This document shows, piece after piece, positions 4,246 to 62,851 of a stretch of DNA of 64,000 nt. The translations under genes were made by a program, and so were the position numbers. Position 1 is the first letter of the stretch, and the number at the start of each line of letters is the position of its first letter. Source of the DNA: Kineosporiaceae bacterium (GTDB taxonomy: Bacteria > Actinomycetota > Actinomycetes > Actinomycetales > Kineosporiaceae). Below the pieces are notes generated by a model. That model was given only the letters and a program-made list of their open reading frames with translations, did not search any database and had not been told where the DNA came from. Location of the stretch: the NCBI GenBank assembly GCA_046330935.1, contig JAXLRU010000005.1, forward strand, positions 120,096 to 184,095. Reading direction: 5' to 3'.

Positions 4246-4316
4246 GCCGCCACCGCCGCGAGGCGGTGCACAACCCGGGAGCGTCGCCGGGGCCCTGAGG
4301 TTACGATGACGCCACG

Positions 4317-5429
4317 ATGACCGATCAGATCCCGGGTGGGCCCGATCCCGCCGACGTCGCCGCTGCCGGCGAGGGCGCGCACGTCCCCGCCGGTTCCGCC
4401 GGGGCCCGTCAGGCGACGCACCGCATCGTCGTCCCCGCCGAGGTGGCGATGGTGGCGCTGCTCGGCGCGCGCGACGAGGTGCTGCGCGCGGTGGAGCGCG
4501 CCTTCCCCCGCGCCGACATCCTGGTCCGGGGCAACGAGATCACGGTGACGGGCCCGCACGGGGAGGTCGCCCTGGTCGAGCGCCTCGTCGACGAGCTGCT
4601 CGAGGTGGTCGGGGCCGGGCAGCCGCTGACGCCCGACGCGGTGGAGCGCGCGGTGGGCATGCTGCGCCAGCAGACGCTGGAGCGCCCCGCCGACGTCCTG
4701 ACGCTCAACATCCTGTCCACGCGCGGACGCACCATCCGCCCGAAGACGCTCAACCAGAAGCACTACGTCGACGCGATCGACCAGCACACCGTCGTGTTCG
4801 GAATCGGCCCCGCCGGTACCGGCAAGACGTACCTGGCGATGGCGAAGGCCGTGCAGGCGCTGCAGGCCAAGCGGGTCAACCGGATCATCCTCACCCGTCC
4901 CGCCGTCGAGGCGGGGGAGCGGCTGGGCTTCCTCCCGGGCAGCCTCACCGACAAGATCGACCCGTACCTGCGGCCCCTCTACGACGCGCTGCACGACATG
5001 GTCGACCCCGAGTCGATCCCCCGGCTGATGGCCGCCGGCACGATCGAGGTGGCGCCTCTGGCATACATGCGCGGGCGCACGCTCAACGACGCGTTCATCA
5101 TCCTCGACGAGGCCCAGAACACCTCCCCCGAGCAGATGAAGATGTTCCTCACGCGGCTCGGGTTCGGCGCCAAGATGGTGGTCACCGGCGACGTCACGCA
5201 GGTCGACCTGCCCTCGGGCACGCAGTCGGGCCTGCGGATCGTCCAGGACATCCTCCACGGCATCGAGGACGTCCACTTCGCGCAGCTGACGAGCACCGAC
5301 GTCGTCCGGCACCGCCTGGTCGCCGAGATCGTCGACGCCTACGGCCGGTGGGACGCCTCCCAGGCGCCGCTGCACGAGCGCGGGCGGGCGGCCGACGCCG
5401 ACCAGCGCGCGCGCCGCCGCACCCGGTGA
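4317..5429 (+). CDS. phoH: PhoH-like ATPase (YbeZ)
   Basis: KH-like N-terminus plus P-loop [15 protein letters not shown]. phoH-ybeY-corC-era order is conserved. Confidence 0.9.
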
Positions 5430-9260: not shown

Positions 9261-10505
9261 TTGATCCCGGAGGTCCGCGTGCTCCACGCCATCCGCTCGC
9301 CACGCCTGCTCGTGTCGGCGGCCTACCTGGCCTTCGTCCTGATCGGCATCGGTGCAGGCGCCGGGGGCGTGCTCATCGCCTCCCAGGTGAGCGACTACGG
9401 GGTGGGCAAGACGCTGTTCGGCATCACCTTCTTCGGGGGCTCCGCGGGCTTCGCGCTCGCCGGGGTCAGCGCCGGCTGGCTGGACCACCGGGTGGGCCGA
9501 CGGGCGTGCCTCGTGGGTGGCGGCAGTCTCGTGCTGCTGGCCGGCCTCGCCACCGCCTCGCGCCCGCCGTTCTGGGCGTTCGCCGCGCTGACGCTCGTCT
9601 CCGGGTACGGCACCGGCGTGCTCGAGTCGGTGCTCAACACCTGCCTGGCCGAGATGCCCACCTCGGGCACCCTGCTCAACCGGCTGCACGCCTTCTTCGG
9701 CGTGGGGGCGCTGGTCGGGCCCGTGTTCGCCGAGCGGATGCTGCGCGTCACGAGCTGGCAGGTCGTCGTCCTGACCGTCGCCCTGATGCAGATCCCCGTC
9801 AAGGCCGCGCTCGCCGCGGTCCACCCCGACGAGACGCACGCCCGCGCCCAGCGGCACCAGGCCCACGCCGACGCCGGCACCGGCGGGCGGCCGGCGGCCT
9901 CGGCGTGGGCGAGCCCGGCCGTCCGCTGGGCCTGCCTGCTGCTGTCGCTGTACGTCGGTGTCGAGTTGACCACCGGCAACTGGGGCTTCACCCTGCTGCG
10001 CGATGCCCGCGGCCTCCTCGACGCCCCCGCCAGCCTCACGATGAGCGGCTTCTGGCTCGGCCTGACCCTCGGGCGGTTCGTGCTCGCCTCGGCGCTCGCC
10101 CGCGTCGGGATCGGCGTCCCCGGCCTGATGACCGTCTCGATCGTCGGGACGGTGCTGTTCACCGCCGCGCTCGCCGTGCCCGTGACCGCGGTGTCCGTCC
10201 CCGCAGTCGTCCTGCTCGGGTTCTTGCTCGGCCCCGTGTTCCCGACCGCGATGGCGGCGGTGCCCCTGATGGTGCGTCCCTCGCTGGTGCCGGCCGCGAT
10301 CGGCCTGGTCAACGCCGGCTCGACCGTGGGCGCGGCGTTCGTGCCCTGGTTCGGCGGGGTCATCGGGCAGCATGCGGGCATGACCTGGCTGCCGCCGTTC
10401 CTGCTCCTGCTCGCCGCCTGTCAGCTGCTGGCGTGGTGGCGGATGGCGCCGCACCTGCGGCACGGCGAGCCTGCGGTCACGACCGTCGGATCGCCCGCCG
10501 CCTGA
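9261..10505 (+). CDS. MFS transporter
   Basis: Twelve predicted hydrophobic helices. MFS signature G-x-L-x-D-R-x-G-R-R between TM2 and TM3 (LDHRVGRR). Confidence 0.75.
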   Translation: MIPEVRVLHAIRSPRLLVSAAYLAFVLIGIGAGAGGVLIASQVSDYGVGKTLFGITFFGGSAGFALAGVSAGWLDHRVGRRACLVGGGSLVLLAGLATASRPPFWAFAALTLVSGYGTGVLESVLNTCLAEMPTSGTLLNRLHAFFGVGALVGPVFAERMLRVTSWQVVVLTVALMQIPVKAALAAVHPDETHARAQRHQAHADAGTGGRPAASAWASPAVRWACLLLSLYVGVELTTGNWGFTLLRDARGLLDAPASLTMSGFWLGLTLGRFVLASALARVGIGVPGLMTVSIVGTVLFTAALAVPVTAVSVPAVVLLGFLLGPVFPTAMAAVPLMVRPSLVPAAIGLVNAGSTVGAAFVPWFGGVIGQHAGMTWLPPFLLLLAACQLLAWWRMAPHLRHGEPAVTTVGSPAA

Positions 10506-41642: not shown

Positions 41643-41941
41643 CTCGTGGCACCTCCCGCGCCGCGCCAGGGCAGCGGTCGGTCCGCTTCGTGGCGTCAGC
41701 CCTGTATCGGCCGCTGGCGTGCGGTTCTGGAGCCGATGCCAGGCCCTACCCGCCGCACGCACCTCTCGGCGACCGGTGATTGACTCCACCGGGCCCAGGG
41801 ACCAGGATTCCCGCCCGGAGCCCGCTGCCGGCGCGCCGTCGGCGGGTCGCTGCCCCGTGCCCCCGTCCCACCCGTTCGAAGCTCCGTCCCCTGTGGCTGC
41901 TTCCCGCCTGAGGGGGACCCGTCGATGTCGAGGCCCCCGCC

Positions 41942-44449
41942 ATGTCACTGTCGTCCCGCCGGTCGCGGATGGTCGGCGTCGCCACCGCCGGCGCCCTGGC
42001 CGCAGTCGCCCTCGTCGGGCCCCTCGGCTCGCCCGCGCAGGCCGCCACGTACAACTACACCGAGGCCCTGCAGAAGTCGATCATGTTCTACGAGGCGCAG
42101 CAGTCGGGGCGCCTGCCGTCGTGGAACCGGGTGCAGTGGCGCGGCGACGCGACCGTCAACGACGGTAAGGCCGCCGGGGTGGACCTGTCGGGCGGCTGGT
42201 ACGACGCGGGCGACCACGTGAAGTTCGGCTTCCCGATGGCGTTCGCGACGACGATGCTCGCGTGGGGCCTGGAGCACAACCGGGCCGGCTTCGTCTCGTC
42301 CAAGCAGCTCACCCCGATGGTGAACAACCTGCGCTGGGCCACCGACTACCTGATCGCGGCGCACCCGAGTCCGAACACCCTGTACGTGCAGGTCGGCGAC
42401 GGCAGCGTCGACCACGCGTACTGGGGTCCGCCGGAGGTCATCGACAAGCTGGGTCAGGCACGCCCGGTGGCCAAGATCGACACCACGTGCCGGGGAACCG
42501 ACGTCGCGGCCGAGACGGCCGCGTCGATGGCCGCCTCCGCCGTCGCGCTGCGCCCCTACGACGCCGCCTACGCCGACAAGCTCGTCACGCACGCCCAGCA
42601 GCTGATGGGGCTGGCCGAGACGCCGACGAACGTGGACGGCAAGGAGAACGCGTACGTCAACTGCGTGAAGGCGGCGCAGGGCTACTACACCTCGACCTTC
42701 GAGGGCGGGACCGCCAACCCGGGGGCCACCAAGATGTACTGGGACGAGCTGGCATGGGGTTCCCTGTGGCTCTACCGGGCGACGAACGACTCGTCGTGGC
42801 TGACCAAGGCCAAGGGTTACTACCCCAAGATGGGCACCGAGTCCCCGCCCGGGGGCGGCTGGAGTGATCAGGTGCCTGCCTACTCCTTCGGACTCGGCTG
42901 GAACGACAAGGAGTACGGCGTCTACGTGCTCATGGCCGCGCTGACCGGTGAGCAGCAGTACCGGACCGACGCCCAGCGGTACCTCGACTACTGGACGGTC
43001 GGGTACAACGGCAAGAAGGGCAAGTACACCCCCGGCGGCCTCGCGTTCATCTTCTACTGGGCTTCCCTGCGGATGTCCGCAGGCACCTCCTGGGCGGCCC
43101 TGGTCTACGCCGACTACCTCGGCAAGGACGACCCGCTCTATGCCCGGTACCACGACTTCGCGAAGCGCCAGATCGACTACGCCCTGGGTGACAACCCGGC
43201 CAAGCGCAGCTACATGGTCGGTTTCGGCGTGAACCCGCCCACGCACGTGCACCACCGTGCGGCCAGCGGCCAGTCGCTGGGGTACATGTCCGACCCCTCG
43301 GGCCCCAACCGTCACACCATCTACGGTGCTCTCGCGGGGGGACCCGACGACACCGACGGCTACGTCGACGACCGCAGCGACTACCAGCGCAACGAGGTCG
43401 CTGTCGACTACAACAGCAGCTTCACGGCGGCCCTGGCCCGGCTGGCCGCCGAGTACGGCGGTTCCCCGGTACCGGACTCCGCCCTGGTGGACCCCCAGCG
43501 GGACGCCGAGATGTCGGTGGGGCTGCTCAAGGACTTCTCCGGGCCCGACGGCTCGTCTTACCGCCTGCAGATCACCAACATGTCGGGCTGGCCACCGCGG
43601 ATCCTCTCCAAGGCGTCCCTGCGCTTCTACATCACCCTCGACGGCTCGACCACCGCCTCGCAGGTGTCGGTCACCTCGGGCCAGGACGCGTGCAAGACCG
43701 GCCCGCTCCAGCAGTACAAGGGCGCCGTCTGGTACGCGAACCTCGACTGCTCGGGGCTGGAGATCTACCCGGGCAGCACCTCCACCTACCAGAAGACGAC
43801 CTCGGTCAACTTCAAGGTGACCGGCGGCGCGGCCTGGGACCCGGCCAACGACTGGTCGGCCGGCGGGTCCGAGAAGGTGCAGCTGTTCGACGACGGCGTG
43901 CTCGTGTGGGGCTCCGACCCCGACGGGACGACGCCGAAGCCGACGACGTCCTCGCCGCGCCCCACCACGACCACCCCGGTGCCGACGACGACGAGCCCCG
44001 AGCCCACGACCAGCTCGCCGACGACGACTAAGAAGTCGAGCACCAAGAAGTCCTCGACGAGGAAGACCTCGCCGAAGAAGACGTCGACGAAGAAGAAGAC
44101 GTCCAAGAAGAAGTCGACCAAGAAGAAGACCACCAAGCGCACGCGCAACGCCGCCGGCCAGGCGTGCGAGGCGGAGCTCGTGGTGACCGACAGCTGGGGC
44201 ACCGGGTACCGGGCCCAGATCAGCGTCACGGCCCTGCGCTCGCTCACCGGCTGGGCGGTCAGCGCGCCGGCGACCGGGACCGCGCTCACCCAGTCGTGGG
44301 GCGGCTCCGTCGTCCTCGACGGCGGCTCACTGTCGGTCCGCCCGGCCTCGGCGGTCGCCGCTCGGGGCGCCGGCACCACGGCGGTCGTCGGCTTCACCGC
44401 CACGGGCGACGCCTCCGCTGCGCCCACCGCCCTGGCCTGTCAGGGCTGA
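41942..44449 (+). CDS. Secreted GH9 endoglucanase: signal peptide - GH9 catalytic domain - CBM3c-like domain - Thr/Pro then polylysine linker - CBM2
   Basis: Signal peptide ending AQA. GH9 signatures ([20 protein letters not shown]; HRAASG; catalytic D/E in the DYQRNEVA region). C-terminal CBM2 with Cys bracket and conserved Trp. Linker [37 protein letters not shown]. Confidence 0.9.
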
Positions 44450-46956: not shown

Positions 46957-47952
46957 TCACGGCAACCGCACCACCTGCGCGGCGTACACGAGCCCGGCGC
47001 CGAACCCGATCATCAGGGCGAGCCCGCCGGAGGGGGCCAGGCCCTCGGCGAGCATCCGGTCCATCGCCAGCGGGATCGACGCGGCCGAGGTGTTGCCCGA
47101 GTCGACGATGTCGCGGGCCACGGGGACCGAGGCGGGCAGCTGCAGCTGCTTGACCATCGCGTCGACGATGCGGATGTTGGCCTGGTGGGGGATGAAGGCC
47201 GCCAGCTCCTCGGCGGCCACGCCCGCGGCGTCCAGCGCCTTGCGGGCCACGGGCGCCATCTGCCACACGGCCCAGCGGAACACCGTCTGGCCGGCCATGG
47301 TCAGGGCGGGCCAGGTCGGGTCGCCGTCGCGCACCTCCAGCCACGAGCGGGAGTTGCGGATCGCCTCCCACTGGGCCCCGTCGCTGCCGGCGATCGTCGG
47401 TCCGATCCCCGGCTCGTCGGAGGGGCCCACCACGACCGCTCCCGCACCGTCGCCGAACAGGAAGGCGGTCGAGCGGTCCGTGGGGTCGGTGAAGTCGCTG
47501 AGCTTCTCCACGCCGACGACGAGCACGTGCCGCGCGCTGCCGGCGCGCACCATGTCGGAGGCGAGGCTGACGCCGTAGCAGAAGCCGGCGCAGGCAGCGG
47601 AGAGGTCGGCCGCGGCGGCGGGGGTGGCGCCGATCCGGTCGGTGAGGATCGCCGCCGCCGACGGCGTCTGGTACGGGTGGGTGACCGACGCCACGAGCAC
47701 GGCGTCGACGTCCTGGGGGGACAGCCCCGCGCGCTCGATCGCCTGCAGGGCCGCGTGCTCGGCCATGTCGACGACGCTCTCCTCGGGCGCGGCCCGGCGC
47801 CGCGTCACGATGCCGGAGCGTTCCCGGATCCACTCGTCGGAGCTGTCGATGTGGCGGCAGATCTCCTCGTTGGTGACGACGCGCTGCGGGCGGTAGGCCC
47901 CGACGGAGAGGATCCGCGCGTGCGGGACGGCGGTGGGCGACTGCAGGCTCAC
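46957..47952 (-). CDS. fabH: Beta-ketoacyl-ACP synthase III
   Basis: Active Cys in AACAGFCYG, His/Asn (HQANIRI; GNTSAASIPLA). 331 aa. Confidence 0.9.
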   Translation of the reverse strand: MSLQSPTAVPHARILSVGAYRPQRVVTNEEICRHIDSSDEWIRERSGIVTRRRAAPEESVVDMAEHAALQAIERAGLSPQDVDAVLVASVTHPYQTPSAAAILTDRIGATPAAAADLSAACAGFCYGVSLASDMVRAGSARHVLVVGVEKLSDFTDPTDRSTAFLFGDGAGAVVVGPSDEPGIGPTIAGSDGAQWEAIRNSRSWLEVRDGDPTWPALTMAGQTVFRWAVWQMAPVARKALDAAGVAAEELAAFIPHQANIRIVDAMVKQLQLPASVPVARDIVDSGNTSAASIPLAMDRMLAEGLAPSGGLALMIGFGAGLVYAAQVVRLP

Positions 47953-48911
47953 CGGGCAGCCCCGGCCTCGTGGAGGGCCGCGCGCGCGGCGTCCAGCTGC
48001 TCGGGGCCCTTCAGGGCGATGGCGGCGACGCCGGGCAGCGCGCGCTTGGCGAGGTTGGCGAGCGTCCCCGCCGGTGCGGGCTCCACCACGGTGGCGACCC
48101 CGAGGGCGGCCAGGCGCTGCTGGCAGAGGTCCCAGCGCACCGGGTTGCTCACCTGCGACACCAGGCGGGCCAGGGCGTCGGCGCCGTCGGTGACCACCTC
48201 GCCGTCGGCGTTCGACAGCAGCGGTAGCTGCGGGTCCTTCGCGGGCACCTGCTCCGCCGCCGCAGCCAGGACGGGCACCGCGGGCGCCATCGTCGCGGTG
48301 TGGAAGGCTCCGGCGACCTGCAGCGGGATGACCCGGGCGCGGGCCGGGGCGGCGGCGGCGAGCGCGTCGAGCGCCGCGCGCGGGCCGGCGGCGACCACCT
48401 GCCCGGCACCGTTGACGTTGGCGGGGGTGAGGCCCAGCGTGGACAGGGCCGCCAGCACCTCGTCGGGGTCACCGCCCAACACCGCCGCCATGCCCGTGTC
48501 CTCGGCGGCCGCCGCCTGCGCCATCGCGCGGCCCCGCGTGGCCACGAGCGAGACGGCCTGCGTGCCGGTGAGCACCCCTGCCGCGGCCGCGGCCGCGAAC
48601 TCGCCCACCGAGTGCCCCGCGACCGCGCCGACGCCGGCGGCGGCCAGGCGCGCGTCGAGGTCGTCCAGCCGCAGGCTCGCGCCGTCGTCCACCAGGGCGG
48701 CCAGGCAGAGCAGGGACGTCGCCGTGATCAGCGGCTGGGCGACGGAGGTGTCGCGGATGGTGTCGGCGTCGCTGGTCGTCCCGTGGGCGGCGAGGTCGAG
48801 CCCCGCAGCGGCCGAGAGGGCCTCGATCAGGTCCGCGGCACCGGGCAGCTCCAGCCACGGCGCGAGCATTCCGGGGGTCTGAGAGCCCTGACCCGGGCAC
48901 AGGATCGCCAG
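47949..48911 (-). CDS. fabD: ACP S-malonyltransferase
   Basis: GQGSQ motif and active Ser in GHSVGE. GTG start at 48911 chosen by homology to mycobacterial FabD N-termini; the track ORF extends to 48947. Confidence 0.85.
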   Translation of the reverse strand: MAILCPGQGSQTPGMLAPWLELPGAADLIEALSAAAGLDLAAHGTTSDADTIRDTSVAQPLITATSLLCLAALVDDGASLRLDDLDARLAAAGVGAVAGHSVGEFAAAAAAGVLTGTQAVSLVATRGRAMAQAAAAEDTGMAAVLGGDPDEVLAALSTLGLTPANVNGAGQVVAAGPRAALDALAAAAPARARVIPLQVAGAFHTATMAPAVPVLAAAAEQVPAKDPQLPLLSNADGEVVTDGADALARLVSQVSNPVRWDLCQQRLAALGVATVVEPAPAGTLANLAKRALPGVAAIALKGPEQLDAARAALHEAGAAR

Positions 48912-48992
48912 CACGTCACCAGCCTCGCCATGCGGGGCGGCGAGCACCGCCGACGCCAGGCACGAACTGCTCTTCCCAGGATTGGAGGGTTC

Positions 48993-50198
48993 CTACAAGG
49001 CGGCCGTGGCCTGCGCGGAGACCGTCTCGCGGGCGCCCCGGCGACCCGCCCGGCTCAGCCTGCCGACGGCGATCGCCACCTGCAGGACGAAGGCCTCGCG
49101 CGGCTCCGTCGGGTCCCACCCGCTGACGTCGGCGACGCGCTTGAGGCGGTAGCGGACGGTGTTGGGGTGCACGAACAACGCCCTCGCCGTGGCCTCCAGG
49201 GACCGCCCGAGGTCGAGATAGGTCGCGGCGGTCTCCAGCAGCGGCGCGTCGACGTCGGCCAGCCGCTGGTAGGCGCGCTCCACGAGCTCCTGCCTCGCGG
49301 CGTCGTCGCCGCACATCAGCCGCTCCGGGAGCAGGTCGTCGGCGGCGACGGGGCGCGGGGCGGCGGGCCAGGCCGGGGCGGCGGCGAGCCCGGCCAGGGC
49401 CGCCTGCGCCGAGCGCCCGGCCTCGTCGAGGTGGGGCACGACCGGCCCGGTGACGACCGGGCCGGGGCCGAACAGCGAGGTCAGGTGCGCCGCCAGGGCG
49501 GTGGGGTCGACGTGGCGGCCCACCACCGCGACGACGCGGTCGCCCTGCACGCCCACCAGCGCGTCCCCGCCCTTGGCGCGGGCCGCGCGACGCAGGTCCT
49601 CGACGACGGCCGCGACGGTGCCGACGGGGGAGGAGCCCGCCACCACGAGCAGCGGGGAGTCGCCGGGCCAGCCGAGGGCGGCGGCGCGCGAGCGGACGCC
49701 GTCGTCGGCCTCGCCGCGCACGAGGGCGTCGACGACGAGGGCCTCCAACCGCGCGTCCCACGCCCCGCGCGCCTCGGCCGCCTGCGCGTAGATCATGGCG
49801 GCCGCGAAGGCGACCTCGCGGCTGTAGCGCAGCACCGACTCGCGCACCATCTGCTCGGCGCCGGGCTCGGAGATCTCCTCGACGTGGTCCTCCACGACGT
49901 CGACGACCACCCGCACCAGCTCCAGCGTCTGCTGCAGGGAGATCGACCGGGTCAGCTCGCGGGGGGCGGTGCCGAACACGTCGGACGTCACGGCCGGCAC
50001 CGTGCCCGGCTTCTCGAACCACGAGATGAAGGCGGCGATGCCGGCCTGGGCGACCAGCCCCACCCAGGACCGGTCCTGCGCGCTCTTTGCCCGGAACCAC
50101 GGCAGCGACTCGTCCATCCGCTGTGCCGCGGCCGTCGCCAGCTTGCCGCTGTTGCGTCGCAGTCGCAGCAGGGCCGCATCGGGTTCGGCGTGGGTCAT
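48993..50198 (-). CDS. PucR-family transcriptional regulator (MabR/FasR-like, upstream of FAS-II genes)
   Basis: C-terminal PucR HTH (LETAATYLDLGRSLEATARALFVHPNTVRYRLKRVADVSGWDP) plus an N-terminal GGDEF-like/PucR sensor region. Positioned as Rv2242 relative to fabD-acpM-kasA. Confidence 0.7.
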   Translation of the reverse strand: MTHAEPDAALLRLRRNSGKLATAAAQRMDESLPWFRAKSAQDRSWVGLVAQAGIAAFISWFEKPGTVPAVTSDVFGTAPRELTRSISLQQTLELVRVVVDVVEDHVEEISEPGAEQMVRESVLRYSREVAFAAAMIYAQAAEARGAWDARLEALVVDALVRGEADDGVRSRAAALGWPGDSPLLVVAGSSPVGTVAAVVEDLRRAARAKGGDALVGVQGDRVVAVVGRHVDPTALAAHLTSLFGPGPVVTGPVVPHLDEAGRSAQAALAGLAAAPAWPAAPRPVAADDLLPERLMCGDDAARQELVERAYQRLADVDAPLLETAATYLDLGRSLEATARALFVHPNTVRYRLKRVADVSGWDPTEPREAFVLQVAIAVGRLSRAGRRGARETVSAQATAAL

Positions 50199-50297
50199 GA
50201 CGGCGAGCGTACCCAGCGCGCGCGGGCGCGGACGCCCGGGTTTGTGTTCACCCCACAAACGGGTGCCGACGGCGAGGTGGACGGCGCGCCGGCGCCG

Positions 50298-56285: not shown

Positions 56286-56358
56286 GGGCCTGTAGCTCAG
56301 TTGGTAGAGCACCGCGCTTACACCGCGGCTGTCGTCGGTTCGAGTCCGGCCGGGCCCA
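56286..56358 (+). tRNA. tRNA-Val (anticodon TAC)
   Basis: Acceptor GGGCCTG/CGGGCCC, D-arm GCTC AGTTGGTA GAGC, anticodon stem-loop CCGCG CTTACAC CGCGG, T-arm GTCGG TTCGAGT CCGGC. Confidence 0.9.
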
Positions 56359-56479
56359 CTGCCGCCTCACCGCGCCGCGTCGGCGCGGCCTGACGGCGAC
56401 GTCCCTCCCCTCACGTGCCGCAGTTGTGGCCCGGGCCAGGCCCGGACCACCCCTGCGGCGCGTCGGTACCTCCCCAGGA

Positions 56480-58687
56480 TCAGCGCAGGGTGCAGCTCAG
56501 CCGCGAGGGTGAGGCCGCGCCGGCCACGACGACCGGAACCGCCGCCGACGCGCCTGCCGCGATCGGCGTCGTCGCGGTCAGCGTCACGCCCGGAGCCGCC
56601 GTCACCGCCAGGGTGCCCGCCTGCGTCACGTCGGTGCCCTCGGGCATCCCGACCGACCAGCCCGTCGCTGCCGCCGTTGCCGTGAGGGTGAGGACGCCCG
56701 CCGAACCGGAGCCCCACGCCGAGGTGAGGCGGTAGGTCACGGTGCAGCCGGGCCCCTCCCCGACGACGAGGGCGGCAGCGGGAGCCAGGGCCCGCGGGCG
56801 GGTGGTCTTCTTCTTCGTGGTCTTCTTCTTCGTGGTCTTCTTCTTGGTCGTCTTCTTCTTCGTGGTCTTCTTGGTGGGCTTCTTCGTGGTGCCGGGCTTG
56901 CTGGTGACCGGCTTCGAGGTGACCGGCTTCGTCGTCACGGGGGGAGTCGTGCCCGGCGCCGACGTCGTCGGCTTGGGGGAGGTGCCCGGCGTCGTCTGCG
57001 TGGGGGTGGGGGTGGTGGCCCCGCCCCAGCCGGCCGCGGAGTCGAGCCAGGAGGCCCGGGCGTGCATCCAGGTGGACAGCGCCGAGACCTGCCCCTGCCA
57101 GGTGGGTTCCGTGGACGTCTGGAAGAAGCCGATCGTGGCCTGGGACAGGTTGGGCCACTGCGTGAAGTTGCGCCCCGCCGCGTTCACCAGCGGAGCCGTC
57201 AGCGCCGCGACCTTCGCGTCGAGCGCGGCATCGGACAGCACGCCGCGGCGCAGCTCCTGCCAGCGCGCCCGCACCTGGTTGGCAAAGGCGGGGTCGGCCA
57301 TCAGCAGCGGGATCCAGTCGGTGGCCATGGGGGTGCGCTGGGAGATCTGCTGGTACTGCCAGCCCGAGGTCTGGTTGTTGCCGAAGAACCCGCCGACGCC
57401 GAAGGTCAGGTCGTAGTCCCAGCCCGGCCCGGAGGTGAGCAGGCCGCCGCGGTCCTTGGAGAAGTAGGCGCTGCGGACGTAGGCGTCCATGTCGCGGCTG
57501 AGCTCGTTGAGGACGACCGTGTCGACGAAGGAGCCCACATCGATGAACGCGCGGTACCCGGTGGCGGGGTCGCCGATGTCGGGCTGGTGCAGCCGGGCGT
57601 GGAACCGGGTGAGGTAGTCCCGGATGTAGGCGAGCTGCTCGGGTGCCGCGTCGTCGGGGTCGGCCAGCTCGACGTAGGTGAAGCAGGGGGAGACCCCGGA
57701 GCAGGTGATCAGCGTGCCGTCGGCCGCCATCCACTCGACCTTCACGATGTAGCCGCCCTCGACGTCGGGGGCCTGCAGGTCGGTCGACTTGAGCTTCTTG
57801 AGGTTCAGCCGGTCCTTCTGGTTCTTGATCGTCTCCATCATCATGTAGACGCCCCGGTAGTCCTCGGGTCCGACCGTCCCGTCGGCCACGTTGAGGTACA
57901 GCTCCACGAACCGGTAGCGCGGGGCGTAGCGGCCCATGTCCCGGGCGAGGTCGAACATCAGGGCGTTGCGGATGAGCGACTTGTCGGTGAAGGGCCCGCG
58001 CAGCACCCAGTCGGACTCGGCCGGCATCCCGAGGACGGGCAGGTCGACGTCGTCGTCGAGGTTGTCCCGCAGCTCGACCTTGTACTGCGCCTTGTCGAAC
58101 GTGGCCGAGGACTGCCCCCGCAGGTGGAAGCCGACGCGCGAGGTGAGGGTCGGGCGCCCCGACGGCGTCACCGTGCCGGTGCCCTCGAACGTCATCAGGG
58201 CGGCGTCCAGGTAGGGGTCCTTCGCCGGTTTGCCCTTGCCGAAGTCGTCGAGGACCACGACCGGCAGGTCGTGCTGCTGCGTGACGGCCTGCTTGAGGTA
58301 GAACGCCGAGGACGGGGCGCCCACCGGCGTGGACCCCGAGAACGCCTGGGCGCGCAGGCGGGTGCTCGTCGTCACGGTCAGGGCGCCCGACGCGGCCGGC
58401 GAGGAGGCCGAGGGCAGGCTCCCGTCGGTGGTGTAGCGGACGCTCGCCCCGGCCTGGGTCGTCGTCAGCGAGACCTGCAGGGACCCCGAGAACGTCTGAC
58501 TCGGCACCGAGAACGCGACGTCCCCGAGCATCGGGTCGGTCTCGGCCGCCTTCGCGGGCGACACGCGCTGCGCGGTGGCGGCGGCTCCACCCGTTGCCTC
58601 GGCGGGGACGAGCACCGTGGCCGACAGCGGCAGGGCGAGCGCGAGACCGACCGCGAGGAGGGCGGGACGCGTGCGGCGCAGGGACAT
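56480..58687 (-). CDS. Secreted CotH kinase-family protein: signal peptide - chitobiase/Fn3-like N-domain - CotH domain - Thr/Pro then (KKKTT)n linker - CBM2-like domain (copy 1)
   Basis: Signal peptide MSLRRTRPALLAVGLALALPLSA. CotH core (WVLRGPFTDKSLIRNALMFDLARDMGRYAPRYRFVELYLN...YRGVYMMMETIKNQ). C-terminal CxxxY...W...W...C CBM2-like module. Confidence 0.75.
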   Translation of the reverse strand: MSLRRTRPALLAVGLALALPLSATVLVPAEATGGAAATAQRVSPAKAAETDPMLGDVAFSVPSQTFSGSLQVSLTTTQAGASVRYTTDGSLPSASSPAASGALTVTTSTRLRAQAFSGSTPVGAPSSAFYLKQAVTQQHDLPVVVLDDFGKGKPAKDPYLDAALMTFEGTGTVTPSGRPTLTSRVGFHLRGQSSATFDKAQYKVELRDNLDDDVDLPVLGMPAESDWVLRGPFTDKSLIRNALMFDLARDMGRYAPRYRFVELYLNVADGTVGPEDYRGVYMMMETIKNQKDRLNLKKLKSTDLQAPDVEGGYIVKVEWMAADGTLITCSGVSPCFTYVELADPDDAAPEQLAYIRDYLTRFHARLHQPDIGDPATGYRAFIDVGSFVDTVVLNELSRDMDAYVRSAYFSKDRGGLLTSGPGWDYDLTFGVGGFFGNNQTSGWQYQQISQRTPMATDWIPLLMADPAFANQVRARWQELRRGVLSDAALDAKVAALTAPLVNAAGRNFTQWPNLSQATIGFFQTSTEPTWQGQVSALSTWMHARASWLDSAAGWGGATTPTPTQTTPGTSPKPTTSAPGTTPPVTTKPVTSKPVTSKPGTTKKPTKKTTKKKTTKKKTTKKKTTKKKTTRPRALAPAAALVVGEGPGCTVTYRLTSAWGSGSAGVLTLTATAAATGWSVGMPEGTDVTQAGTLAVTAAPGVTLTATTPIAAGASAAVPVVVAGAASPSRLSCTLR

Positions 58688-58777
58688 CGGAGGTCCTTTC
58701 CGGCGGCCCCGTCGCCGCCATCGGCGAGGGAGCGCGCTCATGCAGGGGAGCGGAGGGATCGCCGTGGTGCTCGCCGG

Positions 58778-60985
58778 TCAGTTCAGGCGGCACCCGATGC
58801 CGTCGGGCGGGCCGGGCTCACCCGAGACGAGCGAGATCGTGACGCTGTCGCCGGCCGCGAGTCCGGGGCCGGCCGCGGGTGACCTCAACGTCAGCGCCGG
58901 GGTCCGGGCCACGTCCGCCCCCGACACCTGGGTGACGTCGCTGCCATCGGGGAGGACGACGGCCCACCCCGACGCGGGCGCGTCGGCGGTCAGCGTCACC
59001 AGGGCCTGGGAGCCCGACGGCCACGCCGACACCAGGCGGTAGCTCACGGTGCACCCGGGTCCGCTCCCGAGCAGGCTCGCGGGGACCGCCGCCGCCCGGG
59101 TGGTCTTCTTGCGGGTCGTCTTCCTCGTGGTGGTCTTCTTGCGCGTCGACTTCTTCCGGGTGGTCTTCTTCTTGCTGGTCGACTTCCTGGTCGTGGGCTT
59201 CTTCGAGGTGACCGGCTTGGTCGTCGTCGGCGGCGTGCTCGTGGGGGGCTTCGTGGTCGTGCCCGGGGTGGTCCGGGTCGGCGTCGGCGTGGTGGCCCCG
59301 CCCCAGCCGGCCGTGGAGTCCAGCCAGGCGGCGCGCTGGTGCATCCAGGTCTTCATGACGCCGACCTGGCCCTGCCACGTCGGCTCCGTCGACGTCTTGA
59401 AGCGGTAGATGCCGAGGACGGGCGTCGTGAGGTAGTCCCAGCGCTGGAAGTTGCGTCCCGCGGCGTTCGCCAGCGGCGCGGTGATCGAGGCCACCTTCGC
59501 GTCCAGCGCGGCGTCCGACAGCGGGCCGCGGCGCAGTTCCTGCCAGCGTGCCCGCACCTGGTTGGCGAAGGCGGGGTCGGCCATGAGCACCGGGAACCAG
59601 TCGGCGGCGACAGGCTGGTGCGCGGCGACCTGGTCGTACTGCCAGCCGGAGATCTGGTCGTTGCTGTAGGTCCCGCCGGTGGAGAACGTGAGGTCCCAGT
59701 CCCAGCCGGGCCCGGACGTGATCAGGCCGCCGCGGTCCTTGGAGAAGTAGGCGCTGCGGACGTAGGCGTCCTGGTTGCGGCTGAATTCCTCGAGGATCAC
59801 CGTGTCGACGAAGGAGCCGACGTCGATCCACGAGGGGTAGCCGTTGGTCGGGTCGGCGATGTTCGTCCCGTGCAGGCGCGCGTGGAACCGCGAGAGATGG
59901 TCGCTGATCCAGGCGAGCTGGGCCGGGACGGCGTCATCGGGGTCGTACAGCTCGACGTCGTTGAAGCAGGGCGTGGTCCCGGTGCAGCTGATGATCGGCT
60001 GTTCCGCCGCCCGCCACTCGACCTTGAAGATGTACCCGCCCTCGATCGCCGGGGCGGTGACGTCGTCCTCCTTCAGCTTCTTCAGGTCGAGTCGGTCCTT
60101 CTGGTTCTTGATCGTCTCCATCATCATGTAGACGCCCACGTAGTCCTCGGGCCCGACCACGCCGTCCCCGGTGTTCAGGTACAGCTCGACGAACCGGTAC
60201 CGCGGCGCGTACCGGCCCAGGTCCCGGGCCAGGTCGAACATGAGGGCGTTGCGCACCAGCGACTTGTCGGCGTAGGGGCCGCGCAGCACCCAGTCGGATT
60301 CGGCGGGCATCCCGAGCACGGGCAGGTCGACGTCGTCGTCGGCGTTGTCGCGCAGCTCGAGGCGGTACTGGGGCTTGTCGAACATCGACGAGGACTGCCC
60401 GCGCAGCTTGAACCCCGCTCGCGTGGTGAGGGTGGGCACCCCCGAGGGCGTCACGGTGCCCGCACCTTCGAAGACCATCAGCGCGGCGTCGACGTAGGAC
60501 TGCTTGGTCGGCTTGCCCTTGCCGAAGTCGTCCATCACGACCACCGGCAGGTCGTGCTGCTGGGTCACGGCCTGGCGCAGGTAGAACGCCGAGGACGGCG
60601 CACCGGCTGCCGTGCTGCCCGCAAAGGCCTGCGCCCGCAGGCGGGTCGTGGCCGTGAGGGTGAGCGCGCCGGTGGCGGCGGGCGAGGACGCCGTGGGGGC
60701 GCTCCCGTCGGTCGTGTACCGGACGGTGGCTCCCGCCTGCGTCGTCGAGAGGGTCACCTGCAGCGAGCCGGTGAACGTCTGGCTCGGCACGGAGAAGGCG
60801 ACGTCCCCCAGCATCGGGTCTTCCTCGGCCTCCTTGGCGGGCGACGCCTGGCCGTCGGGGGCGGTCACGGCCGCGCGAGCGTTACCGCCGACGGCCTCGG
60901 CGGGGACCAGGACGACCGCGGACAGGGGCAGCGCCAGTGCGAGGCCGACCGCGAGGAGGGCAGGGCGGGTGCGGCGCAGCGACAT
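58778..60985 (-). CDS. Secreted CotH kinase-family protein with K-rich linker and CBM2-like C-terminus (copy 2, tandem paralogue)
   Basis: Near-identical signal peptide and CotH core to copy 1, roughly 75% identity by eye. More divergent linker/CBM. RBS-ATG at 60985. Confidence 0.75.
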   Translation of the reverse strand: MSLRRTRPALLAVGLALALPLSAVVLVPAEAVGGNARAAVTAPDGQASPAKEAEEDPMLGDVAFSVPSQTFTGSLQVTLSTTQAGATVRYTTDGSAPTASSPAATGALTLTATTRLRAQAFAGSTAAGAPSSAFYLRQAVTQQHDLPVVVMDDFGKGKPTKQSYVDAALMVFEGAGTVTPSGVPTLTTRAGFKLRGQSSSMFDKPQYRLELRDNADDDVDLPVLGMPAESDWVLRGPYADKSLVRNALMFDLARDLGRYAPRYRFVELYLNTGDGVVGPEDYVGVYMMMETIKNQKDRLDLKKLKEDDVTAPAIEGGYIFKVEWRAAEQPIISCTGTTPCFNDVELYDPDDAVPAQLAWISDHLSRFHARLHGTNIADPTNGYPSWIDVGSFVDTVILEEFSRNQDAYVRSAYFSKDRGGLITSGPGWDWDLTFSTGGTYSNDQISGWQYDQVAAHQPVAADWFPVLMADPAFANQVRARWQELRRGPLSDAALDAKVASITAPLANAAGRNFQRWDYLTTPVLGIYRFKTSTEPTWQGQVGVMKTWMHQRAAWLDSTAGWGGATTPTPTRTTPGTTTKPPTSTPPTTTKPVTSKKPTTRKSTSKKKTTRKKSTRKKTTTRKTTRKKTTRAAAVPASLLGSGPGCTVSYRLVSAWPSGSQALVTLTADAPASGWAVVLPDGSDVTQVSGADVARTPALTLRSPAAGPGLAAGDSVTISLVSGEPGPPDGIGCRLN

Positions 60986-61087
60986 GGGTGTGTCCTTTCC
61001 GGCGGCTTCGCTGCCGTCGGGTCGCAGGGTGCTCGGGCGGGGCGGGAGGACCTCGGGTGGGGCGGGCAAGGAGCTTGGATCGACGCC

Positions 61088-61882
61088 TCAGGGGATGGCG
61101 AAGTGACGCCGCAGGGTCCGGCGCCAGGGGGCGTTCGGCAGGTCGGGACGCAGCGCCGCCAGGCCGGTGGCGTACTTGGAGATGCGGGTCGGCCGCACCC
61201 CGTGGGCCCACAGCAGCCGGTCGACGGGGGAGGCGCCGCCCGCGGACTTGGTCTCCACCACGGCGAGGAACGGCGCCCTCGCGGTGCCGGCGCTGCACCG
61301 CCACGTCAGGTCGGTGTCGACGGTGAGGCGGCTGTCGCACTCCTCGACGAGGAGCGTGGTGCGCCGGTAGGTGCCGAACATGACCGGCTGCAGGCTGGCG
61401 GCGCAGGGGCAGATGCCGTGGTCGGCCAGCGTGCCGTCGACGAAGTCGTGCGCCCCCTCCAGCATGTAGCGGTCGGTCAGGGGGTGCGGTTGGCGGGTCT
61501 TGACCGTGGCGCCCCGGGGGCCGCGGGTCTTGACCTCCAGCCAGCACTGGCCGGCGTCGAGGTAGCTGCGCGTGCGGACCTTGAACCGGCGGCGACGACG
61601 GGTGGCCGCCAGGCGGTACCCGAGGAAGTCCTCCGTGTCGAAGTACACCGATTCGTACGTGAAGGACCGCAAAGCGTCGATCTGCAGGACGCGCAGGTCG
61701 AGCTTCGCGCCCGACAGGACGGCGGCGGCCTGGTCGACGGTCAGGACGTACTTGCGGTCGATCCGGGTCTGCAGGGCCGCCCGCTCGTTGAGCTGGTCGA
61801 GGCCGACCGCGGGCAGTCCCGCGGCCCAGTCGGCGAGGGTCAGGCCCCAGACCGGGGCGATGGACGTCGTGATCGTGCTCAC
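61088..61882 (-). CDS. VTC-domain (CYTH-like polyphosphate polymerase domain) protein
   Basis: The N-terminal pattern RIDRKYVLTVDQ...LRVLQIDALRSFTYESVYFDTEDF matches the E-x-K-Y...Y-x-S-x-Y-F-D opening of VTC/CYTH tunnel domains. GTG start overlaps the DUF4956 stop (GTGA). Confidence 0.65.
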   Translation of the reverse strand: MSTITTSIAPVWGLTLADWAAGLPAVGLDQLNERAALQTRIDRKYVLTVDQAAAVLSGAKLDLRVLQIDALRSFTYESVYFDTEDFLGYRLAATRRRRRFKVRTRSYLDAGQCWLEVKTRGPRGATVKTRQPHPLTDRYMLEGAHDFVDGTLADHGICPCAASLQPVMFGTYRRTTLLVEECDSRLTVDTDLTWRCSAGTARAPFLAVVETKSAGGASPVDRLLWAHGVRPTRISKYATGLAALRPDLPNAPWRRTLRRHFAIP

Positions 61883-62481
61883 CGGCGGGCCCCCTCACGG
61901 AGGTTCACGTCGCGGGTGAGAGAGGGCAGCCCCGCCGGGGCGGCCGAGTACAGGACGTCCACCACGGTGGTGTCGTTGACGAGGTCGAGGCGCTGGACGC
62001 TGGCCCGGTGCACGGTGCCGCCGAGCAGTTGCTCGAGCGTCGCCTGCAGGGTCTCGGGGGCGGCGACGGCCTGGTCGAGGATGACGACCTGGCGGCGGTA
62101 CCCCGCACCCCAGCGGGGGTGGTCGCCGATGTAGAGCACGAGCAGGAGCAGCGCCATGAGCGAGGCGGGTACCCAGGGCTGGGCGGCGCCGAGGGCCCCG
62201 ATGACGCCGAGGGCGAGGGCCGCGAAGTAGTAGGCGACCTCGTGGTGGTCGAGTTCGGTGGAGCGCAGCCGGATGATCGACAGCACGCCGAGGAGGCCGA
62301 GGCCGAGCCCGAAGCCGGCCGAGGAACTCACCGAGCTGAGCGACGTGGTGACCGCCAGGACGCCGCAGTTGACGCCGAGGAATGCGAGGACGAGATCGCG
62401 CCGACGATGGCGGGGAAGATAGATCCCGAAAACGAGGACGAGGACGGCCACGACGTCCAGGGCGAACAGGACCGCTTGCAC
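61879..62481 (-). CDS. DUF4956-like small polytopic membrane protein (first gene of the CotH/VTC operon)
   Basis: 200 aa with three to four TM helices, then a soluble C-terminal tail. RBS GGAGG before the GTG. Family assignment is from memory of the DUF4956-VTC-CotH gene triad. Confidence 0.45.
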   Translation of the reverse strand: MQAVLFALDVVAVLVLVFGIYLPRHRRRDLVLAFLGVNCGVLAVTTSLSSVSSSAGFGLGLGLLGVLSIIRLRSTELDHHEVAYYFAALALGVIGALGAAQPWVPASLMALLLLVLYIGDHPRWGAGYRRQVVILDQAVAAPETLQATLEQLLGGTVHRASVQRLDLVNDTTVVDVLYSAAPAGLPSLTRDVNLREGARR

Positions 62482-62851
62482 GGGACACCTCCGAGGGACT
62501 GCCTGGCCGTGGATGGAAGTTAACGCGGGGTGACGTCACTCTTAACGTTGGGCGGGCGGCAGTGAAACGGGGTGACGGAGCAGTGTCAAGGGGCACGTTG
62601 TCACCACTGAACCGATCTCAGAAACGCACATGCTTTTCGGGGGGTCGTTCGATCGGGGAGAGCTGCGGTGGCTTTCGGCTAATCGGTTCAGTGACAGGAA
62701 TTCACGTCGAACCGCTTCCGGGCGCCGCGATCCGGCGCGCGCGGGTTCCCGGGAAGCCGTGACGGGGCGCCGACGGACGGCGACGCGCGGTCGGCGACCA
62801 ATCGGCGTGGAGCGAAGACGGCAACCGCCTGTGCCCGCTAGGGTGCGCCCC

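Follow-up and report, generated by a model that had tools for sequence, protein, structure and literature searches.

A free-standing DUF4956-VTC-CotH gene module in Actinomycetota that links a putative polyphosphate polymerase to putative exported kinases

A 64,000-nucleotide stretch of a Kineosporiaceae bacterium genome (assembly GCA_046330935.1, contig JAXLRU010000005.1, positions 120,096 to 184,095; hereafter the window) carries four adjacent genes encoding a DUF4956 membrane protein, a VTC-domain protein and two CotH-family proteins, CotH-A and CotH-B. Judged from gene content and order, the CotH, VTC and DUF4956 genes form a free-standing module in many Actinomycetota that is independent of pel loci and tagged with the carbohydrate-binding module CBM2. 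Its invariant core appears to be the DUF4956-VTC pair, and its usual third partner an exported CotH protein that is predicted to be anchored to carbohydrate. The Kineosporiaceae version has a particular twist: the putative kinase gene is duplicated, the CBM2 modules have decayed and the proteins bear polybasic linkers that resemble kinase substrates.

A reading of this DNA made from the sequence alone, without database searches (the sequence-only reading), had described four tightly linked minus-strand genes, with DUF4956 and VTC overlapping by GTGA, and had assigned them to these families. A check of the window's open reading frames (ORFs) found all four in the same orientation, the overlap was seen in the sequence, and Pfam searches bore out the assignments: the DUF4956 protein matched PF16316 over its full length (E = 5e-57, 192.7 bits, profile positions 1-169 of 169), the VTC protein matched PF09359 (E = 1e-23, 84.6 bits against a cut-off of 23, positions 2-234 of 235), and both CotH proteins matched PF08757 (E = 1e-58 for CotH-B and 7e-59 for CotH-A; 200.4 and 199.4 bits for the pair; positions 2-322 of 322). 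The features of the operon are:

61879..62481, minus strand: DUF4956 membrane protein, 200 amino acids (Pfam PF16316); GTG start with a GGAGG ribosome-binding site
61088..61882, minus strand: VTC-domain protein (Vtc4-like triphosphate-tunnel protein), 264 amino acids (Pfam PF09359)
61879..61882, minus strand: GTGA, the DUF4956 stop overlapping the VTC start (sequence read directly)
58778..60985, minus strand: CotH-B, 735 amino acids (Pfam; NCBI model P0121, 100% identical); ATG start with GGAAAGGA
56480..58687, minus strand: CotH-A, 735 amino acids (Pfam; NCBI model P0122); ATG start with GGAAAGGA
59321..60409, minus strand: putative CotH kinase domain of CotH-B (PF08757, residues 221-583 of the long ORF)
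57044..58126, minus strand: putative CotH kinase domain of CotH-A (PF08757, residues 206-566 of the long ORF)
59096..59254, minus strand: polybasic Thr/Ser/Lys/Arg-rich linker of CotH-B (translation; repeat family D1)
56792..56932, minus strand: polybasic linker of CotH-A, (KKKTT)n (translation; repeat family D1)
58781..59068, minus strand: degenerate, CBM2-derived C-terminal module of CotH-B (CBM_2, 21.2 bits)
56483..56761, minus strand: degenerate, CBM2-derived C-terminal module of CotH-A (CBM_2, 17.7 bits)
62482..62600, minus strand: 5' region of the operon, divergent from a NIF3 gene (sequence; alignment with the relatives L089 and L091)
56361..56463, minus strand: two GC-rich hairpins between the CotH-A stop and a convergent tRNA-Val gene (RNA folding)

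The CotH Pfam searches were run on the long ORFs (58778-61069 and 56480-58741, minus strand), and the true gene starts most likely lie further in, at ATG 60985 and ATG 58687, because each is preceded by the GGAAAGGA ribosome-binding site, each gives a 735-residue product and the NCBI models P0121 and P0122 agree. With these starts the gaps to the upstream genes are 102 and 90 nucleotides, which keeps the linkage operon-like. The GTGA overlap implies that DUF4956 and VTC would be translationally coupled, and the same overlap geometry is found in the Micromonospora and Saccharothrix loci. No terminator-like site was found on the minus strand inside the operon, and co-transcription of the four genes is plausible. 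Searches of the operon against NCBIfam and PADLOC returned no match, so the operon bears no curated name and does not belong to the known defence systems.

The VTC protein, which is identical to NCBI MFN8076174.1, has VTC as its sole Pfam domain, with neither an SPX nor a transmembrane domain. Single-sequence phmmer searches of this protein and of CotH-B against the PDB gave nothing useful, so profiles were needed. A 30-sequence VTC profile matched only yeast Vtc4, Vtc3 and Vtc2 in the PDB (best 3G3Q, E = 2e-4), aligning K44, R103, R105, K118, R174 and R185 with Vtc4 K200, R264, R266, K281, R361 and R373, and Y172 with Vtc4 Y359; all of these aligned residues, Y172 included, are invariant in the 30 orthologues, and the basic ones belong to the N-terminal part of the tunnel. 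When the AlphaFold model (predicted local distance difference test score, pLDDT, 88; predicted template modelling score 0.85) was searched against the PDB with Foldseek, Vtc4 chains came first (8i6v_E, E = 6e-13, then 3g3r and 7ytj), and ranks 1 to 13 were all Vtc4, Vtc3 or Vtc2 (E = 6e-13 to 4e-10), with YgiF and other CYTH/tunnel enzymes lower. By sequence profile and modelled fold, then, the closest solved relative is yeast Vtc4, in keeping with the polyphosphate-polymerase domain named in the sequence-only reading, and we regard the protein as a putative polyphosphate polymerase.

The DUF4956 protein belongs to a family of modest size (1,617 representatives at 50% identity, at E <= 1e-3 with the profile built in this analysis). 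Its AlphaFold model is of moderate confidence (pLDDT 66) and contains five predicted helices of transmembrane length (2-24, 28-50, 53-73, 79-96 and 103-120), followed by a C-terminal beta-alpha-beta-beta domain with its strands in 129-180. The basic loops PRHRRRD and IIRLRSTE are conserved, and in a 37-sequence alignment the invariant positions cluster in them (P23-R-H-x-R-R and S68-I-I-R-L-R-S-T-E...H-E), with a further invariant pair, D120-H121, after helix 5. By the positive-inside rule the Arg/His loops and the C-terminal domain would be cytoplasmic, and this modelled cytoplasmic face is where the VTC protein would be. The suggestion that DUF4956 forms a Vtc1-like channel found no footing, as neither a DUF202 profile signal nor a fold match to Vtc1 was found in it.

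Both CotH proteins share an architecture in which a signal-peptide-like N-terminus is followed by a CHB_HEX_C_1/Fn3-associated domain, the CotH domain, a Pro/Thr linker that is Lys/Thr/Arg-rich in CotH-A and CotH-B, and a C-terminal module. The N-termini (MSLRRTRPALLAVGLALALPLSA..VLVPAEA) look by inspection like Sec signal peptides, and Pfam places CHB_HEX_C_1/Fn3_assoc on both proteins (CHB_HEX_C_1, E about 1e-13 to 1e-14); the apparent secretion and the N-terminal chitobiase/Fn3-like domain that had been read from the translations are thus supported. A profile of the CotH domain alone gave a weak but specific alignment to Bacillus cereus CotH (5JD9, E = 0.004), in which the invariant Asp of DAYVRS aligns with B. 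cereus D224 and the leading Asp of WDxD with D247. Their B. subtilis counterparts are D228 and D251, the catalytic and the metal-binding aspartate, and CotH is inactivated when these residues are mutated. Both aspartates are kept in CotH-A and CotH-B and are invariant in the orthologues, which makes the two proteins putative kinases. The paralogues are 70% identical and both are under purifying selection (ratio of nonsynonymous to synonymous substitution rates 0.36 overall and 0.62 in the C-terminal module). Two metagenomic relatives sort with one or the other: P0123 is B-type (78% identity to CotH-B against 69% to CotH-A) and P0124 is A-type (76% to CotH-A against 71% to CotH-B), so the duplication predates those lineages.

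The C-terminal modules had been taken as cellulose- or chitin-binding CBM2 domains that target the kinases to extracellular polysaccharide, and this stands for the orthologues and is doubtful for the window. The window's CBM_2 matches (17.7 bits in CotH-A, 21.2 in CotH-B) lie below the Pfam cut-off of 24, and PF00553, which nearly all orthologues have, is missing from the precomputed Pfam annotations for P0121 and P0122. Against the aromatic strip of Cex CBM2a (W17/W54/W72), both proteins keep W17 and the Cys pair, while direct alignment shows W54 replaced by S in CotH-B or G in CotH-A and W72 by A or T; with W54 and W72 lost, binding of these two proteins to crystalline cellulose or chitin is doubtful. 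The orthologue CBM2 profile, on the other hand, matches Cex CBM2a (1EXG) at E = 4e-21, and genuine CBM2 domains are present on the CotH orthologues of Micromonospora, Cellulomonas (including C. flavigena DSM 20109), Saccharothrix and Actinosynnema, and likewise on those of Actinoplanes, Microbispora and other genera, so that predicted targeting to cellulose or chitin is well founded for them. About 12 kb from the operon, at 41912-44449 on the plus strand, lies a gene for a glycoside hydrolase family 9 (GH9) cellulase that carries CBM3 together with a bona fide CBM2 scoring 34.9 bits. The host thus looks cellulolytic, as had been supposed, and a true CBM2 exists elsewhere in the organism, while those of the CotH proteins have decayed.

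The linkers of both window proteins are encoded by 15-nucleotide tandem repeats (imperfect in CotH-B) that specify the pentapeptide KKKTT. They resemble the known substrates of Bacillus CotH, which are the Ser/Lys/Arg repeats of CotB and CotG (PMC7821199) and the Thr repeats of ExsB and which were detected with an antibody against a phosphosite flanked by basic residues (PKC-type). By analogy we infer that the window linkers may be CotH substrates, in cis or in trans. As a family-wide feature the polybasic linker was rejected; it is confined to the window's two proteins and their closest relatives, P0123 and P0124, which share the polybasic region and have no CBM2 at all. These CotH paralogues of a sister lineage, P0123, P0124 and the product of 19-1995 in locus L087, share a tail rich in Lys, Thr and Arg that contains a Cys pair (..CRTNKKGVKxCK..) and finishes in SQTPWLAGR. 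In the window, the linker repeats also create long opposite-strand ORFs with high G+C at third codon positions (56736-57416 and 59043-59408, plus strand), which are artefacts and not genes.

That the three families should recur together was the sequence-only reading's central expectation, and a census across genomes agrees with it. A pattern scan of one genome per species gave at least 599 candidate stretches, at least 594 of them encoding relatives of the VTC protein, and the best 80 loci were surveyed with hidden Markov models built in this analysis. DUF4956, VTC and CotH lie on one strand in 66 of the 80 loci (61 of these with CBM2), VTC and CotH alone in one, and DUF4956 and VTC without CotH in 13; put by pairs, DUF4956 adjoins VTC in 79/80 and CotH comes next in 67/80. 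The same gene order in 66 loci takes the arrangement far beyond chance. A second CotH gene was seen in none of the other 80 surveyed loci. When neighbouring ORFs were clustered, only DUF4956, VTC and CotH were shared, and no other family occurred in more than 11 loci. Lineage-specific neighbours are often secreted plant-cell-wall enzymes (GH10, GH11, CE15-CBM2, Pel9A-like with CBM6/35, GH53 and GH12-CBM2), counts that are not phylogenetically independent.

Cassettes of Micromonospora, Saccharothrix and Actinosynnema are surrounded by genes for secreted plant-cell-wall enzymes, which also include GH43 and a CE15 glucuronoyl esterase-CBM2 protein (loci L003, L005, L014, L016, L025, L029, L033, L047 and others). 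In two loci that lack CotH, the gene next to VTC encodes another protein, namely a Cthe_2159-type carbohydrate-binding protein in L022 (10758-12500, plus strand) and a GGDEF-EAL protein with a periplasmic-binding domain in L032 (10902-14099, plus strand), and because such genes follow pairs without CotH, the third partner of the cassette may be interchangeable. Relatives at 74% VTC identity also have the cassette beside NIF3, with an A-type CotH gene followed by DUF3052; in the Kineosporiaceae lineage the cassette is inherited vertically. Recent insertion of an island at tRNA-Val was considered and rejected, as the relatives share the NIF3/DUF3052 position and the base composition is unremarkable.

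The trio had been thought to lack any described function. This holds for function, but the trio itself has been published: Whitfield et al. (2020) listed cotH, a polyphosphate polymerase gene, DUF4956 and DUF4832 as accessory genes that directly adjoin pelDEADAFG in streptococci and clostridia, and in bifidobacterial pel loci a GGDEF-EAL gene takes the place of DUF4832 (PMC7112168), an arrangement that L032 recalls. Like the window, the accessory set of S. intermedius (SIR_1594/1593/1592/1591) has the same three families adjacent, and it comprises a secreted CotH, a soluble VTC-type enzyme with its catalytic residues and a multi-pass membrane protein that ends in a small C-terminal cytoplasmic domain. 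From position and architecture we take its four-transmembrane-helix (4-TM) gene to be the DUF4956 homologue; deletion of this gene or of CotH altered Pel levels and aggregation (PMC12345266). The window differs from the pel form in its reversed order (DUF4956, VTC, CotH) and in having neither pel genes nor DUF4832: none of these, nor any other exopolysaccharide gene, is among the annotated genes of the 64-kb window, and the Micromonospora and Saccharothrix loci are also without pel genes. Its CotH proteins, moreover, are duplicated and carry CHB_HEX_C_1 and CBM2-like domains, whereas pel-linked CotH has a C-terminal FN3 domain. The 2025 authors did not find the three-gene synteny outside pel loci (PMC12345266). 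What is new here is the pel-independent, CBM2-tagged form; the trio in pel loci was already known.

Other known systems resemble parts of the module. The yeast VTC complex of Vtc4, Vtc3 and Vtc1 (3G3Q, 7YTJ, 8I6V) likewise has the tunnel domain, the basic residues and an obligate membrane component, but the bacterial protein lacks SPX and the fused three-helix DUF202 membrane domain, DUF4956, the putative membrane partner, is a separate protein of five helices for which no relation to Vtc1 was detected, and the predicted topology would deliver polymer outside the cell rather than into a vacuole. The CotH-CotG-CotB system of B. subtilis (PMC7821199; 5JD9) shares the CotH Pfam family and both catalytic aspartates, and its Ser/Lys/Arg repeat substrates resemble the linkers in the window. 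The similarity to Bacillus CotH is very distant, however, and the window proteins would be exported from a vegetative cell whereas Bacillus CotH acts in the mother cell with ATP available; the carbohydrate-related domains and the linkage to VTC and DUF4956 are additional. The cellulosomal CotH proteins (C. thermocellum CseP/Cthe_0044, R. cellulolyticum Ccel_1101 and those of anaerobic fungi) are likewise extracellular and targeted to the machinery that degrades plant cell walls, by a dockerin where the actinobacterial proteins have CBM2. One paper credits such extracellular or cellulosomal CotH proteins with "no defined function" and calls an extracellular kinase activity unexpected, ATP being unavailable there (PMC12774918). 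Finally, in NELoc-2 of C. perfringens every VTC gene precedes one for a cytoplasmic-membrane protein some 225 residues long ('tubulin/FtsZ-like'), with cotH beside them (PMC2879425); this protein is, we infer, DUF4956. NELoc-2 differs in being a Firmicute pathogenicity locus next to a glycosyltransferase gene. In the literature searched, DUF4956 only ever appears as an entry in a list.

Why an exported kinase should be linked to a membrane protein and to a polyphosphate enzyme of the cytoplasm would be explained most simply by supply of a phosphoanhydride donor outside the cell. We therefore put forward, tentatively and as a reading whose chances fall somewhat short of even, that polyphosphate is synthesised at the membrane and passed to the exterior, where it would serve the extracellular CotH kinases as phosphate donor. 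In this scheme the soluble Vtc4-like enzyme would dock on five-helix DUF4956 from the cytoplasmic side of the membrane, the two being made in fixed proportion through their overlapping stop and start codons, and would polymerise polyphosphate from ATP. The polymer would then pass through or along DUF4956 to the cell exterior, where the Sec-exported CotH might use it as phosphoryl donor or bound cofactor because no ATP is available outside the cell. In most orthologues a true CBM2 would anchor the kinase to cellulose or chitin, near the secreted plant-cell-wall enzymes. In the Kineosporiaceae lineage, where CotH has been duplicated, the CBM2 has decayed and a Lys/Thr repeat linker has been gained, CotH-A and CotH-B would probably phosphorylate their own or each other's linkers, because these resemble the Ser/Lys/Arg repeats phosphorylated by Bacillus CotH. 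The fuller version, in which a two-protein bacterial counterpart of VTC expels polyphosphate and so energises extracellular CotH acting on proteins or glycans bound to the plant cell wall, is more doubtful.

Several observations weigh against polyphosphate export to a kinase. The characterised CotH enzymes use ATP, and we know of no report of polyphosphate as donor for the CotH fold. The Asn of the B. cereus catalytic loop, five residues past the catalytic Asp, is Ser here, and invariantly so. In the VTC protein, invariant E210-T-K212 and S235-K236-Y237 resemble what we take to be the E426 and K458 motifs of Vtc4, but alignment did not confirm this: two C-terminal VTC profiles aimed at E426/K458 gave no alignment to Vtc4. 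No conserved basic residue lies within the transmembrane helices of DUF4956 in the 37-sequence alignment, and the protein shows no recognisable pore. Natural DUF4956-VTC fusions were dropped as evidence of a complex, there being none among the ten longest of the top 150 representatives. CotH is absent from 10 of the 77 loci that have at least 2.5 kb downstream of VTC. Deletion of the S. intermedius VTC gene (SIR_1593) had no phenotype (PMC12345266), which argues against a strict pathway from VTC through DUF4956 to CotH, at least in that species. Activity has been reported for no bacterial VTC, DUF4956 or secreted CotH protein.

Some of these points suit an alternative in which DUF4956 and VTC act only inside the cell and CotH is merely co-regulated with them, being energised or used in some other way; the pair might, for example, be a membrane-tethered polyphosphate or triphosphate enzyme regulated through an ACT-like C-terminal domain, with CotH as a non-catalytic adhesin or binding protein or dependent on another donor. 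The CotH proteins of Mucorales, after all, are invasins and not known kinases. The loci in which the pair stands without CotH, the want of evidence for a pore and the failure of the VTC deletion to phenocopy the CotH deletion all fit it, and the S. intermedius authors themselves suggested that polyphosphate may stay cytoplasmic (PMC12345266). It has more difficulty with the third gene, which almost always encodes an exported carbohydrate-binding protein, be it CotH in 67/80 loci or the Cthe_2159-type protein in one of the two DUF4956-VTC-only loci with an annotated adjacent downstream gene; an exported partner is hard to explain if the product stays inside. Nor is CotH likely to be a mere adhesin, because its catalytic aspartates are invariant and it is under purifying selection. 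We consider this alternative unlikely, though it deserves to be taken seriously.

Export could also serve a different target, with DUF4956-VTC still supplying the donor and a CBM-anchored CotH phosphorylating polysaccharide, be it the substrate (cellulose, xylan or chitin) or an exopolysaccharide made by the cell itself. Distant relatives of CotH are the secretory-pathway kinases of the Fam20 type, a group that includes sugar kinases. The orthologues combine a true CBM2 with a chitobiase-type N-terminal domain, genes for carbohydrate-active enzymes are frequent neighbours, and the Firmicutes trio is embedded in pel loci, where its deletion alters Pel levels (PMC7112168, PMC12345266). Every characterised CotH is nonetheless a protein Ser/Thr kinase, and the window proteins have lost the binding strip of CBM2 and gained a substrate-like protein linker. 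To these we add that, to our knowledge, phosphorylated cellulose or xylan is not known from these bacteria, and we judge a glycan target improbable.

A VTC protein that is not a polymerase deserves about as little credence: it could be a triphosphate-tunnel enzyme of another sort, for instance one that hydrolyses tripolyphosphate or polyphosphate, or could help to take up polyphosphate from outside, so that the module scavenges or senses phosphate. YgiF and ThTPase share the tunnel fold and are significant fold matches too, the residues specific to polymerisation (the K458 region) are those left unconfirmed by alignment, and microbial use of external polyphosphate is known, its mechanism unexplained. 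Yet Vtc4, Vtc2 and Vtc3 rank clearly above the hydrolase-type tunnel enzymes by both profile and fold, the match is specifically to the Pfam VTC model, no PHO-box-like direct repeat was matched in the operon promoter, and no phosphate transporter genes lie beside the operon. Chance adjacency or an annotation artefact, lastly, is refuted by the census and carries next to no weight, given that order and strand recur in 66/80 loci of many genera with unrelated flanks, that stop and start codons overlap and that the trio occurs independently in Firmicutes and bifidobacteria (PMC7112168).

Polyphosphate handed outward to CotH, if true, would have consequences beyond this operon. A 2026 paper assigns polyphosphate synthesis to PPK1/PPK2 in bacteria and to VTC4 in eukaryotes; a Vtc4-like enzyme that is widespread in bacteria and obligately paired with a membrane protein would add a third route to those of bacteria, possibly one of export. 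Extracellular CotH proteins recur in bacterial and fungal cellulosomes, and their fixed linkage to a polyphosphate enzyme offers a testable answer for them, which, if right, would explain in general how extracellular and cellulosomal CotH kinases are energised. The free-standing actinobacterial form also shows the module to be an independent unit that is not confined to pel biofilm loci, and its culturable hosts include Cellulomonas flavigena, Micromonospora and Saccharothrix.

The region upstream of the operon contains a promoter-like TTGACA-N17-TTCACT followed by GTTAAG/GTTAAC repeats (GTTAAGA and GTTNACTTC), AT-rich elements in a 74% G+C genome that are conserved in the relatives L089 (about 9300-9410) and L091 (about 890-998); a consensus sigma-70 scan of the promoter region gave no match. 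A 10-bp palindrome, GTGACGTCAC (62530-62539), was dropped as a candidate operator because it is found only in the window and is not conserved in the relatives. The sole PHO-box-like two-unit repeat of the window (GTCATCGTGGCGTCATC) lies at 4305-4321 on the minus strand, at the start of a PhoH-like gene (4299-5429), where about 0.1 matches would be expected by chance in the window. In the 121 nucleotides past the last stop, RNA folding gives two strong GC hairpins (-81.8 kcal/mol, z = -5.1); these hairpins, at 56361-56463 and without a U-tract, are probably a two-way terminator and the likely end of the transcript. An Rfam search returned only tRNAs. A PucR-type regulator with a GGDEF-like domain (48993-50297, minus strand) adjoins an acyltransferase gene (47949-48992) and shows no apparent link with the operon. 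Upstream, the operon borders on the divergent NIF3/DUF34 gene, and downstream on the convergent tRNA-Val (56286-56359), an AhpC/TSA peroxiredoxin, DUF3052 and AceE. The annotated part of the window, which is about 74% G+C, is made up of housekeeping genes apart from the one cellulase, and includes genes for the PhoH-like protein, LeuA, RecO, a glycyl-tRNA synthetase-like protein, Dus, a dGTPase-like HD protein, DnaG, malic enzyme and AceE.

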